Positions 56,069 through 64,000 of a DNA stretch of 64,000 nt are shown one piece after another. How positions within the stretch are numbered: the stretch's first letter is position 1; the number at the start of each line of letters is the position of its first letter. The notes beneath the pieces are model-generated. The model saw nothing but the letters and a program-made list of their open reading frames with translations. It made no database searches and was not told where the DNA came from. Position numbers and translations under genes: made by a program. This stretch comes from an uncultured Verrucomicrobiae bacterium (GTDB lineage: Bacteria; Verrucomicrobiota; Verrucomicrobiia; Limisphaerales; Palsa-1400): positions 3,168,001 to 3,232,000 of the forward strand of contig CAVXRD010000002.1 of NCBI GenBank assembly GCA_963764165.1, written 5' to 3'.

Positions 56069-57169
56069 TTGATCTCTGTATAATATAGTGACAATATCAC
56101 CAAAGCTCGGCTTGCTTCCAGAAGGCAGTGACCAATTTGGGTCTGCGCCGCATCCGGCTCAGGGCCTTGCGCCCGCAATGACTCAACTTCGCCAGGTCGG
56201 CCGCGCAAAGATTGGGCAACTCGTGCTGCTTGAAGTAACCCCAGACATACTCGGTGGGATTGAGTTCGGGCGCATAGGCAGGCAGTCGTTCCACCCAGAT
56301 TTTGCCTTTCAGTTGATCCACATAGTCCCGCACCAGCCGGCTGCGGTGGATGGGACCACCGTCCCAAATGACCAGAAGCTTGCCCGGGATGTGGCGTTGC
56401 AGATGTTTCAAGAATTCGATCACCTGCGGGCCTTTGATGGTGCCGGGGTAAAGCCGGAAGTAAAAGTTCCAGACCGTCACCCCGGCGATGATCGAAAGCT
56501 TTTTCCAGTTGAAGTCGAACTGCAATACCGGGGTCTGGCCGCGCGGCGCCCAAGTGCGAACCCGGTGCGGCTTCTGGCTCAATCCGCTCTCGTCGATGAA
56601 AACCACGATTCGCCTCTCGCGGAGGGCTTTTTTTTAAGCTGCGGCCAGCGCACTTTGCGCCAGCGGGTGATCTCCCGCTCATGGCGCTGCCGAGCCTGGG
56701 TGGTGGGCCGCTGGCAGCTCCAACCCAGCTTTTGCAGAAGCCGGCAAACATGGTCCTCGTGGTATTGGACGCCCGTCAACCGTTGGATAACGGCGGCCAC
56801 CCGCCGGGTGGTCCAAAGCTGGGTGCCAAAGTCATGGGCTTCGGGTCCCTGTTTGAGGGCCCGTTCCAACTGGCGGAAGTTCTCGTCGGTCAGGCGGGGC
56901 TTGCGCCCGGCTCGCCCAGCCTTTTTGAGAGAGGGCGCGCCATGGTCCTGCCAAGCCTTATGCCAGCGGCTGACCGATTGCCGGTGGACGCCAACTTGGC
57001 GGGCGACCTCGGCCTGGCTCAAGCCTCGGTCGAAAAGTTTGACGGCTTTCATGCGCCGCCGTTCCAGTTGTGCAAACTGCGCCAAATCGCGTTTTACGCC
57101 TTTAGGATTTCCCATACCCAAAAATTAGCATAAAAACAATAATGTGTCACTATATTATGCAGAGATCAA
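56069..57169 (-). mobile_element. complete IS630-family element
   Basis: TIR TTGATCTCTG(T/C)ATAATATAGTGACA (24/25), TA duplication, two ORFs joined by an A8 slippery run at 56628-56635. Confidence 0.95.
56097..57115 (-). CDS. IS630 transposase (HTH ORF plus DDE ORF, -1 frameshift)
   Basis: HTH..WTTRRV..LGWS; KKALRERRIVVFIDESG, WDG..H, PAYAPELNPTE. Confidence 0.92.
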
Positions 57170-58805
57170 TAGGTGCGAAAGCCGCCCATCAAGGCGGATG
57201 CTTTTGCCTTCCGTGATATCGATGGCCACGGTCTTTCCGTTGTAGGAAAATTGGTAAGTGCCGCGCGCGGTGCCCTTGATCGTTGCGCTAACAAGAACTC
57301 GTTGCTTCCACACCATATCGACTTCAAGGCCACCCCGCGCGCGAAGGCCTCTAACCAATCCGTCGTTCCACGCCTCAGGCAAGGCAGGCAGCAAATAGAT
57401 TTGGATACACTCCGCCTCCGCTGTCATATCGAATATCCATGCCTGAGGCGGGCGCGAGCGCGGCGCGCACCAACTTCCAAGCGTGGTCGCCGTCTTCCAA
57501 TCGACTCCATAATAAGGCCTTGTAAGCAAGCGCCCAGCCCACCCCGTCATCCCCTCTCGCTTCCAACGTTTTGCGCGCTGCGGTGGCAAGACTTGGTGTG
57601 GCCAGCGGTGAAATTTGGCCGCCCGGGTACAATCCCCACAAATGCGACACGTGCCGATGGTGCGGATCCGCTTCCTTGTATGGCTCAGGCCATTCCATGA
57701 TGCGCCCGTCCGGCCCAATTTGTACTGGCATCAGCTTCGCGAGTTGTCTCGCGAGCTTGCTTCGGAACTCCTGATCAACCCCCAGGATCGTCGCTGACTC
57801 GATACAAGCATCAAATAAACTACGTGTGATTTCCGATTGATAGGCCGAGCCCAAAGCGATGGCTGGCTGCTGATGGTCGGGCGATTCAAAATGATTTTCC
57901 GGTGAATTTGCCGGGGCGTCAACGAGCCAGTGATGTTTCGGATCCTCAATCAAAAGATCGGAATAAAATTCAGCGGCGCCTTTCATGATGGGATAAGCCC
58001 ATTTGAGGAACTCCTTATCGCGCGTGAATAAGTAGTGATCCCACAAATGCTGACAGAGCCAGCCGGAACCGCTCATGGTGGATCCCCACGAAGCGGATTC
58101 GCCCGGAGACGTGTATCCCCACGGATTGGTGATGACGTGTGCCACCCAGCCGGTTGCATGGTAATAAGAACGGGCCGTTTGCGCTCCCGGCTTTTGCAAT
58201 GAGTCTATGAGCGCGAACAGGGGCTGTGTCAAATCCGAGAGATTACAAACTTCCGCCGGCCAATAGTTCATCTCTACATTCATGTCCAGATGCCAGTCTC
58301 CCGTCCACGGCGTGTGGATTTCTTCGGCCCATATCCCTTGCAAGTTTGGCGGCAGCCCGCCGGGGCGGGAGGAGGAAATCAACAAATATCGGCCAAAATT
58401 AAAATACAGCGCCGCCAGGCTTGGATCGCCACTCTTATTCGCCAGCCGGACGCGTTCAGGTGTCGGCTTCGCCTCTGCCGTTACATCAGATGGACTGAGA
58501 TGAAGCGAGACTCGCTGGTAGTATTTTTGATAATCCGCAATATGCGCATCGCGCAATGAGGCATACGATTTCTCCGCCGCTTTGTTTAAATCGTCCAGCG
58601 TTGCGCTTGACGGATCTTTTGTCTCGCGACCAGCGAAACCCTGGTAATCCGTCGCGGCGGCAATCAACAAAATAGCTTCATCCGCGTGGCTGACACTCAA
58701 AAGATTCCCCTGAGCGGAGGTTTGCCCGCCTCGAATGAGAACGCGCGCGCGCACGGCATAGCGAATGCCGTCGCCACCTTTGCCGTTGTCCAATTGGCCG
58801 GTCAT
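57170..58805 (-). pseudogene. GH95 alpha-L-fucosidase relic (5' truncated, internal deletion with frameshift, IS630 at 3' end)
   Basis: FGRYLLISSSR, NLQGIW, MNYW, HRHVSHLWGLYP; YPNLF joins LLPALP out of frame with the PPFQIDGN segment missing. Confidence 0.9.
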
Positions 58806-58916: not shown

Positions 58917-59473
58917 TTAGGAGCGGATGACGATCTCGAGTTTCTTGAGAGTAAAATCGTGGTAGGTTTGAGCCATTGTTACACGCTCCCGTGCGGCCGT
59001 GAGCAAATGGATGTTGCTCAATAGCAATCGCACCAAATTCGCACAACCCAAACGCAAAATAGGGCAGAGGCAATCAGCACCGCCATCCGCCAGTATTCGG
59101 GATGCCATTTTTCGGGGTCTTGAATTCCTTTTGGCGGTTCCATCATGCCTTTGACTTCTGGAATCAGAAAGTAAAGCGACGTTCCTGCCGCAATTGCACA
59201 AACAACGGCGTAAACCCATGACAAAATCAGATGCGATTTTGCCTTTTTTGTCCAATATGTCACAGGCGAGCGCAATACCAAAGCGTCGTCATACGTTTTT
59301 CTCAATTCTGTCCATTCGGTCTTGGCCCTCGTCATTTTGTAATCGTTATCTGTGGCCCAATCCGACAGCGACACCCATTCCATAGAGGAAATAGCTGACG
59401 GTTGGGGCTCGGCGTTTTTGGGAGCAACCAAGCCGGAAAGCACCGCCAAGAGAACTACTGGTGACAATTTCAT
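58917..59473 (-). pseudogene. mosaic of gene fragments including a frameshifted DUF6161-like membrane segment
   Basis: PVTYW..K, WVVRI | LVRLLLSNIHL..A.ERVTMAQTY split over two frames; unrelated signal-peptide start. Confidence 0.5.
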
Positions 59474-59597: not shown

Positions 59598-59951
59598 TCA
59601 AATGTTAGAGGCCAGAGTCGAAGCTAGGGAAGGTTGCTTGGGGCCCGCGCTCGTGCGGCAATTGATTTGGCTGGGCTGCCGGCAGAAGGGTTCGGGGAAG
59701 GCCGACAAACCAGACCAAGCAAGTATCGGCGCGGCCAGAACTAGTGCTTCGGTTGATGGAAGAACCTGGGAGTGGGCAAACAGAGTAATCGCGCACTCAT
59801 GATCCGGAGCATCCGCATCCGAGTGAACCAGCCGGTGAAGGAATGAGCTTGCTGAAAGAAAACCTAAGACCAGCACCAAACCGACGCCAAGAACCGCTGC
59901 CGCACGGCGCAGGGCTTTAACAAGATTGAAATTCAGCGTCTGTAAATGCAA
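59598..59951 (-). CDS. His-rich DUF2946-like small protein, copy A (3' end probably frameshifted)
   Basis: TM, then HRLVHSDADAPDHECAITLFAH; LPHERGP lies in another frame. Confidence 0.6.
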   Translation of the reverse strand: MHLQTLNFNLVKALRRAAAVLGVGLVLVLGFLSASSFLHRLVHSDADAPDHECAITLFAHSQVLPSTEALVLAAPILAWSGLSAFPEPFCRQPSQINCRTSAGPKQPSLASTLASNI

Positions 59952-59965
59952 ATCATTTGCAATTA
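59943..59965. promoter_or_regulatory. Fur-family-like operator, copy A
   Basis: TAAATGCAA-ATCAT-TTGCAATTA. Confidence 0.65.
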
Positions 59966-60128
59966 GACACCATCTCTAGTGCTTTGCAAGCTGTTTTTTG
60001 GGAGATTGTTTGCCGCTTGGCTGACGACCAGGGTATTTCCCAAAAAAGCTCGAGTCTGTGTTTGACGGAGGGTGAATCCGTTCGCATTGGCAATCCGAGA
60101 ATCGAGATTAGCCGGCACTAACCTAGGC

Positions 60129-60902
60129 TCAGCCTTTGAGATGAAATCCCACCACAAGCAAGGCAATGACAAGAAATCCGATGCTGAAAAAGCCAAGAAC
60201 AATTCCCTTATGATGCTTCCAAATTTCCCCCAGAATTGCATGAATGCCGAGAAAGACAAATCCGCCCCCTGCGTGAGCCAAGGCCACGCCCAGCCAAAGT
60301 TCGGAAACTCCATGCAGAACGAATAGGCCGATCAGTCCTCCCAAAACAGTAGTCAATTCAACGGCTGCAACCATCAAGAGCATTCTGCTGGAAGTGAAGC
60401 CGGCGCCGAGCAGCAAGGCTCCGAGAGCCATGCCTTCCGGCGCCTTGTGAACGCATATTGCGAACATCATCGCCGCATCCAGCACATGGGCGTTCGTGCC
60501 TGTTTCCTCATGGCCCGCAGCCAAGGCCAATCCGTCGACCGCGCAATGAATTGCCAGCGCCACCGTCATGGCCAGCGCAATCTCGCCAAAATGGTGGGTG
60601 GTTGCCTCGTCAAAATGACTGGCCGCGCAGGCAGGGCAGACATGGAAGACATATTTGCTGATTAACGCGAAGAGGAAATAGCCGCTGGCGGCTGCTAGTG
60701 CGAACTGCCAGAGATGCAAGGATTCCAGGCACTCCGGCACGATGGCGAACACGGTCACGCCTAACAGCGTGCCCGCCCCAAGGCTGATCAGAGCGCAAAG
60801 CCGTTTGTGCGTTCCAGCTATGCACGCGCTGGCCACGCCACCAGCCAAGGCGATCAAAAATGCCGCCCCGGTGCGAATCAAGATGGCAGCAGCGGCGCTC
60901 AT
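60129..60902 (-). CDS. ZIP family metal transporter
   Basis: GAGTLLG, HVCPAC..SH loop, IHCAVDG, VHKAPEG; about 8 TM helices. Confidence 0.88.
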   Translation of the reverse strand: MSAAAAILIRTGAAFLIALAGGVASACIAGTHKRLCALISLGAGTLLGVTVFAIVPECLESLHLWQFALAAASGYFLFALISKYVFHVCPACAASHFDEATTHHFGEIALAMTVALAIHCAVDGLALAAGHEETGTNAHVLDAAMMFAICVHKAPEGMALGALLLGAGFTSSRMLLMVAAVELTTVLGGLIGLFVLHGVSELWLGVALAHAGGGFVFLGIHAILGEIWKHHKGIVLGFFSIGFLVIALLVVGFHLKG

Positions 60903-61804
60903 GGGGTTTTGTTGCCCTTCAACCGTTCCTTCCAGGTCTGCACGGCTTGCGGGGTGGTAGAAACCACCTGTAACTGTTCCAGCCATCCGATTGCCTCATT
61001 GGTGTGATGTTCTGATTCCGCCAGGTGTGCGAGCGAGGCAAGAATTTCCTCGGCGATAAACTTGTTGTGGTCGCTGTCTTTGTCCGGCAAACGCGCCAGA
61101 TTGCGCAGTCCCGCTTCCCAGACGTTGCGCGCGCCAATGGGATTGTGGCGCGCCTCGGAAAAGAGACGGCCGAGGTCGAAGAGCAACTGCGGGTCGCCCG
61201 GATTCTCTTTGAGTCCCTCGCGCAGCTCTTGTTCGCTGTCGTCAATCTTGTCCATTCGGCGCAGCCAGTAAGCGGTCACCAGATAGACTTCCACCCGCTT
61301 TGGGTCCAGCTCCGTGGAGAGCTTCAGCCAGGGCAGGATTTCCCCCACTGAACTTTCGTCCTCTTTGCCGTTGGCGCCGCCTTCGATTAAGTGGGTATGC
61401 ACCGAGGGGTAAAATTGCCTGCCGAAGGCGTCGATCCAATTGCGCGGCGGACCAAGAAAAGTTGTCTCGTCACCGGTGTTCTTCCCTTTCATGGCCCCGG
61501 AATCTTCGGCGATGTGCGGCGTTTTGTACGATTGGCGATTGTCATAAATCGTCGGATACATGCCGCTGTGGAAATAGGCGTCCGCTTTCACAAAGAATTG
61601 ATCGGCGAATAGGCGTCGCGCATCTCCAATGGCGACGGCCATGAGGTTGGCGGAAGCGGCCCGGTTGCCGGGCCAATCCTGAAACCACAAGCTCAAATTA
61701 GCGGCAAGAGAAAAGCTGCCGACCAGCAGCAGCAAAAGCCAAAGTTCTCCTGCGAAACTTCTGCTGCTACGGTTGGCGTTGGAATGGAGAGTCATCGGCA
61801 TCAT
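60899..61804 (-). CDS. membrane-anchored TPR protein
   Basis: N-terminal TM; ADAYFHSG, HTHL; TPR-like LDP..Y..AYWL, GLKENP. Confidence 0.75.
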   Translation of the reverse strand: MMPMTLHSNANRSSRSFAGELWLLLLLVGSFSLAANLSLWFQDWPGNRAASANLMAVAIGDARRLFADQFFVKADAYFHSGMYPTIYDNRQSYKTPHIAEDSGAMKGKNTGDETTFLGPPRNWIDAFGRQFYPSVHTHLIEGGANGKEDESSVGEILPWLKLSTELDPKRVEVYLVTAYWLRRMDKIDDSEQELREGLKENPGDPQLLFDLGRLFSEARHNPIGARNVWEAGLRNLARLPDKDSDHNKFIAEEILASLAHLAESEHHTNEAIGWLEQLQVVSTTPQAVQTWKERLKGNKTP

Positions 61805-61818
61805 CAATTCAGATCGTC

Positions 61819-62595
61819 CTAGTTCAAAGCACGGCGACGGAAAAGCATGCACGCCGCGAGCAGAAAGAAAGCACCGTAAACCGCGCCGTAAGCCGTCGCT
61901 TTCAAGCAGACCAGCCAGTGGATGGACGGCCAGTTATGTATCACCAGATCGCGCACGTCGAAGAATTCCAAATGGGGTATGACAAAAAAGAGCGCCATAA
62001 GCAGGCTCCGCGCCGGCTCGCCAGCCTGCGTGGCAACCTGGTCCAAATGGCGGCCCACCATCAGGATGAACGCCACCGCGACGAAGGAAATGGCGACGTT
62101 GGCCGATACTGCGCTGAACAGCAACGAACCGAGGATGCTCATCGCGATGATAACCCCCAGCATGAACCAATGCAGCCAGATAGCCTGGAAGTAATTTGCC
62201 AGCGGCCAGTGATGTTCTTTTGACATCGCCATTAATCCAAAGAAGGCATAAAAGGCCAGCAATGAGATTCCCGCCGCGATCCAGCAACCGAGGAACTTGC
62301 CCAACAGGACCTCGTTTCGTCCGATTGGTTTGGCTAGGAGGGGATAAATCGTGCGATTCTCGCGTTCCGTTGGAATTTGCCGCGCGGCCATCGTAATGGC
62401 GATCACCAGCGAAGAAATCCAGATGAGCAGCAGACATATCTCCTTCATGTAGCGGTCAATTTGACTGTCGTGGAAAAGATTGACCGAACCCATCATCAAT
62501 GTAATCACTGCGGTGACGACAAACAGCACGTAAAAATCCTTGCGGCGGATGCTTTCTTTTACAACGACGGAGGACAATGCCCAAATGTTTTTCAT
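61819..62595 (-). CDS. ABC-2 type permease (PilI-like)
   Basis: E.ENRTIYPLLAKPIGR...LLGKFLG. Confidence 0.88.
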   Translation of the reverse strand: MKNIWALSSVVVKESIRRKDFYVLFVVTAVITLMMGSVNLFHDSQIDRYMKEICLLLIWISSLVIAITMAARQIPTERENRTIYPLLAKPIGRNEVLLGKFLGCWIAAGISLLAFYAFFGLMAMSKEHHWPLANYFQAIWLHWFMLGVIIAMSILGSLLFSAVSANVAISFVAVAFILMVGRHLDQVATQAGEPARSLLMALFFVIPHLEFFDVRDLVIHNWPSIHWLVCLKATAYGAVYGAFFLLAACMLFRRRALN

Positions 62596-63419
62596 ATTTG
62601 CTCGGGTGCGTGGTAGCCGATTACGCGCAGAAATACTTGTTCGAGATTGCACTCGTATTTTTTAACAAGAGCCTTGACGCTGCCCCCTTCCTTAAGCTCC
62701 CCTTCGTGAAGGATCGCCACACGATCGCAAACCGTTTCCACTTCACCCAATTCATGGGATGAAAAGAAAACGGTCTTGCCCTCGTTCTTGAGCCGCTGAA
62801 TGATTTCCCGGACTTTCATCCGGCCAATGGGATCAAGACCGCTTGTGGGTTCGTCGAGAATAAGCAAATCAGGATTGTTCACCAATGCCTGTGCCAGCCC
62901 AATTCGCTGCTGCATGCCCTTGGAGTAGGTCTTTATAAGGCGTTTTCGGGCGTGCTCCAAATCCACCAGTTTCAAAGCGGCATCCACCAGCCCATCCATC
63001 TTCGGACGCGGGATGCCGAAAATGGTGGCATATAGCCGGAGCAGTTCCTCCGCGCTCAGAAATTTGTAATAGTAAGTTAATTCCGGCAAATAGCCGATTC
63101 GCTGGCGCGCAATAGGTTCCCGCACGCTGGTGCCGAACAAGAAGGCATCGCCTCTGGTGGCGCGGTTGAATCCGAGCAAAACATTCATCGTCGTGGTCTT
63201 GCCGGCGCCGTTTGGGCCAAGGAATCCAAAAACCTCCCCCTGTCGCACTTTAAACGTGAGGTCTTTCACCGCCACTTTCACCTCTTGCCGCAATTCCCGG
63301 CTGGTAAATTCGACGCGAAGATGTTCGACGCGCAAAACCTCTTCCGACCTGGCGCACGGTGGTGCGGTGGATAAATTCTGCAAGTCGTTAGTCGCAAAAA
63401 ACTCTGTGGATTCTTTCAT
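62592..63419 (-). CDS. ABC ATPase (PilH-like)
   Basis: GPNGAGKTT, YSKGMQQR, DEPTSGLDPIGR. Confidence 0.92.
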   Translation of the reverse strand: MKESTEFFATNDLQNLSTAPPCARSEEVLRVEHLRVEFTSRELRQEVKVAVKDLTFKVRQGEVFGFLGPNGAGKTTTMNVLLGFNRATRGDAFLFGTSVREPIARQRIGYLPELTYYYKFLSAEELLRLYATIFGIPRPKMDGLVDAALKLVDLEHARKRLIKTYSKGMQQRIGLAQALVNNPDLLILDEPTSGLDPIGRMKVREIIQRLKNEGKTVFFSSHELGEVETVCDRVAILHEGELKEGGSVKALVKKYECNLEQVFLRVIGYHAPEQI

Positions 63420-63566
63420 AAGCTATCGGACGATTCTTCGCGGCCGCAACCGGGCCATTCAAAGATATCGACTATTCTAAGTCTGCTTTTGACTGAGATG
63501 CTTCAAATCGCCGCGCACTGTGGGCGGCAGCTTTGAATGGATGCCGAAATCTGGCAAAAACCTGGA

Positions 63567-63899
63567 CTAAGCGAAGAGGACGGGAGGAGCGCGGCCGGGC
63601 AGGAGTAAATAGTCGCGCGAAACGAAGATTGCATGTTGGAAAGCATTTTCAGCCGCAAAGGCAAGAAAGATCGGAATCGCGGCAACAGGGCTTCCATCCG
63701 TTAAATTAACTTTTCCGTGCGCGAATGCGGTGACAGCGCAATCGTGATGCGCGTTGTCGGCGTCCGAATGAATGAGTCGATGAAGGCCAGGATCGCTCGC
63801 CAGCGCCCCACAGAATAAAATTCCAAGCACCAGCGCGGCCGTTAGCCACCGGCCAATCAGGCCATCCGTCCGAAAAAGGTGTTTCGCGTCTAATTGCAA
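63567..63899 (-). CDS. His-rich DUF2946-like leader protein with C-terminal RAPP motif, copy B
   Basis: TM; HRLIHSDADNAHHDCAVTAFAHG; ends LPGRAPPVLFA; start codon uncertain. Confidence 0.7.
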   Translation of the reverse strand: MQLDAKHLFRTDGLIGRWLTAALVLGILFCGALASDPGLHRLIHSDADNAHHDCAVTAFAHGKVNLTDGSPVAAIPIFLAFAAENAFQHAIFVSRDYLLLPGRAPPVLFA

Positions 63900-63913
63900 C
63901 TGATTTGCAATTA
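63891..63913. promoter_or_regulatory. Fur-family-like operator, copy B
   Basis: Perfect 9-5-9 palindrome TAATTGCAA-CTGAT-TTGCAATTA. Confidence 0.7.
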
Positions 63914-64000
63914 AACATGGAAGGCCTTTTCACGCAAGCCATTTATCGCGTTTCAACAAGCGCCCCGCAAGTTCAGGCGGGAGGGCAGCTAAAAGGGCGC

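Follow-up and report, generated by a model that had tools for sequence, protein, structure and literature searches.

A candidate CruR-like ribosome-arrest leader under a probable Zur-type operator ahead of an ABC-permease-TPR-ZIP operon in an uncultured Verrucomicrobiae bacterium

Known leader peptides and the present locus

Both metal-sensing arrest peptides characterised so far respond to copper. The leader family described here keeps the 45-residue ruler and changes the ligands. Its representative, leader A, lies in a window of 64,000 nt (positions 3,168,001 to 3,232,000 of contig CAVXRD010000002.1, assembly GCA_963764165.1) from an uncultured Verrucomicrobiae bacterium. Leader A precedes genes for an ATP-binding cassette (ABC) ATPase, an ABC-2 type permease, a protein with tetratricopeptide repeats (TPR) and a ZIP-family permease, and a paralog, leader B, lies behind them. 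Judged from sequence, with a probability of about 0.55, leader A is a CruR/DUF2946-like ribosome-arrest switch under a probable Zur-type operator, heading this ABC-permease-TPR-ZIP operon. Leader A likely provides zinc uptake with an additional switch, coupled to translation in the manner of the copper-sensing peptide CruR.

CruR of Bordetella pertussis (Bp2923, DUF2946/PF11162) resembles leader A in its export signal, its metal motif with a C-terminal RAPP 45 residues further on, its position as the first gene of an uptake operon, a C>G bubble at the 3′ end, and a long spacer, which is 162 nt for CruR and 147 nt for leader A (PMC9426467). Its 45-residue spacing is kept within one or two residues, and five additional residues break regulation (PMC9426467). 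Leader A differs from CruR in its HxxxH-x7-HxCxxT motif, which stands in place of CXXC, its zinc-type targets and the Fur-family box over its start. Further, CruR has a 45-nt 5′ leader whereas the start of leader A appears to be nearly leaderless, and leader A does not reach the Pfam cut-off.

CutF of Rhodobacter capsulatus and the CutF-like clusters also combine an exported leader, a metal motif and a proline tail, and some members head resistance-nodulation-division (RND) efflux operons (PMC9973294; bioRxiv 2025.02.05.636593). His-only CutF-like clusters before Ni/Co permeases have already been proposed as Ni/Co sensors (PMC9973294). Unlike leader A, CutF has CxxxC and PPP and turns translation on through a stem-loop; the spacer of leader A holds no such significant structure. 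Zinc has 0 occurrences in the main text of the CutF paper.

Three other systems share features with the locus. ZrgD (DUF2607) is the small first gene of the Zur-regulated zrg operon of Vibrio, a zinc-starvation operon with an ABC ATPase, a permease and DUF3299 (PMC9817125). The Caulobacter DUF2946 gene CC2720 heads the zinc operon czrCBA under a Zur site, as leader A stands under its box, and the Zur-repressed ABC-2 type znuGHI genes are a precedent for ABC-2 genes in a Zur regulon; CC2720 differs in that it concerns efflux, Zur activation and another box, with no leader function proposed in the part of the paper available (PMC4176598). The arrest peptides ApdA and ApdP and the upstream open reading frames (uORFs) of a survey share a C-terminal RAPP/RGPP in small exported uORFs, and a source table of the survey lists RAPP/RGPP uORFs before "zinc-regulated TonB-dependent receptor" genes (PMC12992588). 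In the survey's main text zinc has 0 occurrences, and the core motifs of the leader family were not found in the part of its source file 8 that was searched (PMC12992588).

Already on record, then, are CruR, CutF, the His-only CutF-like clusters, a DUF2946 gene heading a Zur-controlled operon, ZrgD/DUF2607, and RAPP uORFs before zinc-regulated receptors. The literature searched yielded no mention of the His/Cys leader family, of its box, of an arrest peptide that senses zinc, or of the candidate Zur operator TGCAA-N5-TTGCA with its regulon for this lineage; the family may be listed in the supplementary files of the CutF paper or the survey.

Leader A and its family

Leader A has a transmembrane (TM) segment at residues 14–32, followed by H40, H44, H52, C54-A-V-T57 and H61, and RAPP at 103–106; its C-terminal sequence is LLPGRAPPVLFA. 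Two paralogous ORFs with a TM segment and a His/Cys motif had been recognised in the initial annotation, and both are present: leaders A and B match HxxxHxDADxxxHxCAxTxFAH, and each has a hydrophobic stretch, with 19-residue hydropathy maxima of 1.87 (A) and 2.28 (B). The structure model of leader A contains a helix at 4–27, with a mean predicted local distance difference test (pLDDT) score of 82.7, a confident TM helix and a helical putative metal site. Fold searches were uninformative, with no Foldseek match and a best VIA Z of 3.6. The stop codon lies 147 nt ahead of the ATPase ATG, close to the annotated distance of about 150 bp, and the four genes that follow are tightly coupled, with 4-nt overlaps or a gap of at most about 20 nt. 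Pfam confirms the annotated ATPase, permease and terminal ZIP (Table 1).

Table 1. Positions in the window of the leaders, boxes, operon genes and associated elements
Feature	Position	Strand	Remarks
Leader A	63567-63899	minus	TTG start, 110 aa; ORF list, motif match, hydropathy
Codons of putative metal site H40...H61, leader A	63717-63782	minus	H/H/H/C/T conservation in 150 representatives
RAPP codons, leader A	63582-63593	minus	45 residues past CxxT
Box A, TGCAA-N5-TTGCA core	63895-63909		perfect 9-5-9 palindrome 63891-63913; likely Zur-type operator across -10/start; holds A's TTG start; genome rank 2
Promoter-like stretch	63910-63937	minus	TTGCGT, 17 nt, weak TG-extended -10 entering box; read by eye from alignments
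C>G, pyrimidine-rich, rut-like tract over leader A 3′ end	63560-63660	minus	
147-nt spacer	63420-63566	minus	no intrinsic terminator; fold z +1.03
ABC ATPase (PF00005)	62592-63419	minus	ABC-2/DrrA-like
ABC-2 type permease (PF12679)	61819-62595	minus	
TPR-containing membrane-anchored protein	60899-61804	minus	start ambiguous among three ATGs
ZIP/ZupT-family metal permease (PF02535)	60129-60902	minus	motifs HCAVDG and HKAPEG
Leader B	59598-59951	minus	TTG start, 117 aa; metal motif intact, tail decayed
RGPQ of leader B	59638-59649	minus	off frame by one base
Box B	59947-59961		9-5-9, one mismatch; holds B's TTG start; top-scoring site of genome
ORF after B	59018-59473	minus	signal-peptide-like start, weak DUF6161 match

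Relatives of the leader occur in 27 of 30 genomes of the family, in 248 of 351 genomes of the order (a tally that counts this genome and one unpublished genome), and in 28 of 301 genomes drawn from the phylum. At E≤0.001 the relatives form 2208 clusters. Among the best 150 of these, the three His positions are kept in 150, 149 and 150 and the Cys in 150; 139 have the Thr, 87 carry RAPP and 48 RGPP. A second set of 158 distinct matches came from fetched loci, picked partly among the highest-ranking matches and partly through a search seeded with CxxC, and therefore not a random sample; five with the motif or Cys missing were left out, leaving 153 leaders for operon analysis. An R[AG]PP-type ending is found in 154 of the 158, which together with the His/Cys counts of 149–150 in 150 bears out the expected conservation in homologs. 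The spacing from CxxX to the Arg is 44–45 residues in 147 of 158, with no window filter (29 of 30 in an earlier sample). Relatives outside the order (L035, L044, L054, L062) have an HAPP ending, and several CGPP, in place of R[AG]PP. The search for related loci in named genomes gave one weak match, unrelated in look.

CxxC occurs in 20 of the 153 leaders, a sample enriched by the CxxC-seeded search, and mainly in one clade (4 changes on the tree) that heads both ZnuA and efflux operons. The CxxC and CxxT members align column for column at an hhalign probability of 99.7; CxxT thus corresponds to the CXXC of CruR without the second Cys and with three His added.

The kinship to CruR/DUF2946 suggested earlier holds down to the 45-residue spacing. 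The DUF2946 profile search proposed along with it stayed below its threshold. Leader A scores 18.2 bits with PF11162, under the gathering score of 23.7; the profile matched 1 of 34 members at all, and no sequence in 31 family genomes exceeded the cut-off. PF10795 (DUF2607) matched 1 of 34 members at E 0.034. In the Atlas, DUF2946 and DUF2607 are the closest clusters that have a name, each at 0.94, the latter with 161 shared features; the two placements count as one source of evidence. By its anatomy, the leader family is CruR-like, yet it is not filed as DUF2946.

The box at the leader starts

The palindrome drawn over each leader start in the initial annotation is perfect at A and carries one mismatch at B. 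As a genome-wide signal the bare 15-bp core was rejected, since it is at chance level (8 found, 8.4 expected), and the signal of the box must come from flanks and position. The scoring matrix used holds no site of this genome; the sites in it had been found with a pattern taken in part from boxes A and B. Its top four sites in 7 Mb are B, A and two tandem sites 1 kb past the window end. The tandem boxes (G000:C2:3232945-3232989, ranks 3 and 4) lie between divergent DUF3299 and COG0523 genes.

Exact TGCAA-N5-TTGCA is found upstream of 25 of 150 leaders, and upstream of 36 with one mismatch allowed; shuffled upstream windows give 0.23 exact boxes, and spacers of 2–4 and 6–9 give 0. Sites at zip-fur and znuA add to this enrichment, as had been predicted for metal genes. 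None of 17 leaders of the main RND class has an exact box; box counts include kin and are not independent, and the RND contrast is not significant on independent pairs. The boxes take two positions. In the first, over the -10/start, the TTG of the box shares the reading frame of the leader in all 12 cases; in the second, about 50 nt further up, the frame is random (7, 4, 13). Sites with two mismatches were discarded as mostly background, and a one-mismatch site in G023 falls inside an ORF.

Distal-type boxes in L293 (1500-1943) and L297 lie in a divergent promoter common to the leader and a very His-rich small lipoprotein without a Pfam match. Unboxed leaders (L008-L028 starts) often show, by eye, a TATACT-like hexamer about 7–8 nt before the ATG, which suggests leaderless mRNAs.

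A probable zinc-type repressor

The best palindrome precedes a zip-fur operon in seven family genomes. In ten genomes picked for boxed leaders, four of nine non-leader sites precede zip, zip, fur and znuA, here in other families, and five are unexplained; no iron gene was recognised among the nine. The box also marks COG0523/DUF3299 genes, and it is absent at feoAB in 6 of 6 genomes. COG0523, ZIP, ZnuABC and DUF3299 operons are standard Zur targets (PMC6103462; PMC9817125). The presence of the box at zip-fur, znuA and COG0523/DUF3299 and its absence at feoAB thus argue for a Zur-type operator, and TGCAA-N5-TTGCA is probably, on this distribution, the operator of a zinc-sensing Fur-family repressor. 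The Zn/Ni/Mn range first suggested thereby narrows to zinc for the repressor.

Sites with 0–1 mismatch occur in 8 of 8 tested genomes with a second, zip-type Fur and in 0 of 5 without it, the G023 paralog being assigned by score only. This genome and G026 have boxes without a zip-type Fur paralog. Past the window end, a Fur gene of the same metal island has Zur proteins as its best solved matches, with the sensory Cys aligned, and is 27% identical to the zip-linked Fur; on these matches it is the likely reader of the boxes in this genome.

Operons headed by the leaders

The first genes behind the 153 leaders are porin-like (56), TonB receptor (36), pilin-like (23) and RND outer-membrane factor genes (19), the ABC type of the window (5), the zrg type (3) and others (9, including one COG0523, one choice-of-anchor M and one Fur-type gene), with none called in 2. 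The median gap from leader to next ATG is 120 nt. The porin-like class stands for porin-ZnuAB operons: 43 of its loci extend far enough to show the following gene, and in all 43 it is ZnuA. In the Opitutaceae-like family (name inferred) the leaders head TonB receptors, and a regular-expression search found no box there. An ABC-permease-TPR-ZIP operon stands behind a leader also in G011, G022 and one metagenome contig; the same operon closes a longer leader-zrg operon in G012, in G026 and in one additional contig, and a second contig has the zrg-TPR-ZIP part only.

In the pilin-like class (DUF1559/N-methyl), a Fur-type match lies within 3.6 kb in 6 of 17. In L183, L196, L205, L224 and others, DUF1559 pilin-like genes head boxed operons and are followed by choice-of-anchor-M-like secreted proteins; a zinc-scavenging surface system is possible.

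Proposed mechanism and output

With zinc present, the repressor would cover the -10/start region. With zinc absent, a nearly leaderless mRNA would begin inside the box and be translated from its TTG. Stalling at RAPP would then leave the His/Cys site just beyond the tunnel exit, while the ribosome masked the C-rich tract and kept Rho from loading, and the operon would be read. Metal binding would fold the site and relieve the stall, and Rho would stop transcription within the 147-nt spacer. To judge from the target genes, zinc is the most likely metal to be sensed.

C/G around the leader stops is 1.5–1.9, against 0.8–1.0 in controls from this genome; the bias is partly owed to proline codons and is seen at synonymous sites too. 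In the last ten codons ahead of the motif, third positions hold little G and much T. The spacer of leader A has no intrinsic terminator and folds no better than shuffles (z +1.03), and a rho gene is present in the genome. Such an output appears a better match to the Rho mode of CruR than to the stem-loop mode of CutF. Another Rho-like gene, shorter and scoring under the NCBIfam cut-off, lies at G000:C2:2562652-2563740. No RNA run was among the sequencing runs listed as holders, and one DNA run was, with a share of 0.05.

More tentatively, and with rather less assurance than for leader A itself, lineage-wide His/Cys nascent-chain zinc sensors (HxxxH-x7-HxCxxT, 45 residues, R[AG]PP) might gate the main zinc-uptake operons in most genomes of the order, often without a Zur box. 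The family sits on zinc operons across the 248 genomes of an abundant, mostly uncultured order, and its natural CxxT/CxxC and boxed/unboxed variants make co-translational zinc sensing and the double zinc check directly testable. If true, this would be the first zinc-sensing ribosome-arrest peptide, a portable module before uptake and efflux operons, and ZrgD/DUF2607 would be explained as the same switch in Vibrio. ZrgD/DUF2607 probably has a proline tail too.

Counter-evidence and alternative explanations

Several observations weigh against the proposed switch. Since the exact box stands at only 25 of 150 leaders, two-tier control would be the arrangement of a minority. The 19 leaders that head RND outer-membrane factors (two pumps tested are of the CusA/CzcA type) are a difficulty, as metal-driven shut-off would be the wrong sign for efflux operons; the direction of control could vary from one operon to another. 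Closely related leaders head now uptake, now efflux operons, with 40 class changes on a weakly resolved tree, and CxxC members precede ZnuA operons too (11 of 56) while CxxT members precede efflux pumps. Leaderless TTG starts are usually weak, and a promoter scanner made no call at the promoter-like stretch 63910-63937. This genome has no zip-fur operon at the usual place. The zip-linked Fur of the relatives lacks the Zur Cys, with a Fur as its best solved match, and the same palindrome shape is that of an engineered iron-Fur operator bound by iron-Fur in Magnetospirillum (PMC4506495). The island also decays, leader B and the adjoining DUF3299 gene both being frameshifted.

The same arrest leader could sense another metal or several (Cu, Ni, Co, Mn, Cd), with Zur alone handling zinc; the arrival of the wrong metal would, for example, close a promiscuous ZIP or open efflux. 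The CxxC clade, which heads ZnuA as well as CusA/CzcA operons, would suit such a sensor, as would the MntR and HupE-like genes of the island and the His-only CutF-like clusters before Ni/Co permeases (PMC9973294). A division of CxxC for efflux and CxxT for uptake was rejected by wider sampling and by the tree, which gives no independent CxxC-efflux link. The initial suggestion that exchanging CxxC for His determines the metal is not supported either: the lost residue is the second Cys, and both motifs head both kinds of operon. Since the CxxC clade occurs on both and the operon class has changed 40 times, the ligand set does not name the metal. The targets speak for zinc: the commonest are ZnuA, ZIP, DUF3299 and COG0523 operons, and no copper chaperone or oxidase is among the named first-downstream-gene classes. 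We consider sensing of other metals unlikely, and prefer zinc.

Somewhat less probable is that stalling acts on translation, melting a structure that hides the next ribosome-binding site as in CutF, or that it reports Sec export capacity as in SecM/ApdA, the latter considered because most first downstream products are exported. Across 40 loci the region +10..+100 is folded slightly more stably than shuffled sequence (mean z -1.06), ABC-type spacers repeatedly contain hairpins, and efflux targets need a switch-on. The spacer of leader A, by its z, offers no such structure, and 147 nt is a long stretch for a ribosome to melt, a mode that the CutF paper ties to short gaps (PMC9973294). The next gene after leader A encodes a cytoplasmic ATPase, and an export monitor would not be expected to keep invariant His and Cys. 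For leader A, Rho-dependent control remains the preferred output.

The box could instead be an operator for iron- or manganese-Fur and not for Zur, which is improbable. Its shape is identical to the iron-Fur operator, and the zip-linked regulator is Fur-like by sequence and the sole Fur found in six family genomes; the boxless feoAB genes and the nine non-leader sites, four at zip, zip, fur and znuA and none at a recognised iron gene, speak against it. Very improbable is a small membrane metal-binding protein (chaperone or accessory subunit) with an incidental proline tail, which the modelled TM helix and helical site would allow and for which ZrgD, described solely as a protein of unknown function in the available part of its paper (PMC9817125), offers a parallel, but which accounts poorly for the long gap to the operon, the fixed spacing to R[AG]PP, the synonymous pyrimidine bias at the 3′ end and the reuse before unrelated operons.

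Leader B and the surrounding metal island

The initial annotation spoke of RAPP leaders in the plural. Leader A ends in RAPP; in leader B the distance from the Cys codon to RGPQ is 146 nt, where 147 would be in frame, and this 1-nt frameshift ahead of RGPQ rules out B as an intact RGPP leader and leaves the idea of a working RAPP leader unsupported. Its nearest DNA relative is an RGPP leader heading the same ABC-permease-TPR trio in another genome. As a query, leader B found no homolog at E≤0.001, and the ORF after it found none in 30 family genomes. Leader B is best read as a decayed copy whose original operon appears to be lost. General assembly error is improbable as the cause of the frameshift because 32 of 33 tested genes are intact; a single such error at this site may still be the cause.

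The window ends within a metal-uptake island, which continues past the window end with a frameshifted DUF3299 gene, a COG0523 GTPase gene, a MerC-domain gene, the operon of paralog C, the Fur gene, TonB receptors and MntR; a HupE-like gene belongs to it as well. The DUF3299 gene (window 63989 to G000:C2:3232805, minus strand) is split by its frameshift here and is whole in relatives. Paralog C (G000:C2:3236817-3237275) has RAPP and a degenerate box and heads a zrg-like ABC ATPase-FtsX-lipoprotein-DUF3299x2 operon, similar in content to that of ZrgD. Paralog D (C2:7619-8164), outside the island, has RDPP and no box and heads TonB receptor-TonB-ExbBD. ZnuA was not found in the genome with two queries from the family and a third from the order.

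Between the divergent mntR and a TonB receptor gene, a palindrome that contains TGTAGC (G000:C2:3246600-3246733) is a candidate MntR operator. On the minus strand of the window, two overlapping transposase-like ORFs at 56097-57121 meet at a run of A; we take them to be an IS630-like element with a probable programmed frameshift. A truncated, split glycoside hydrolase-like gene at 57155-58805 (minus strand) shares a stretch of 87% identity with a paralog of 806 aa on contig C4; the edge of the island may lie at this gene.

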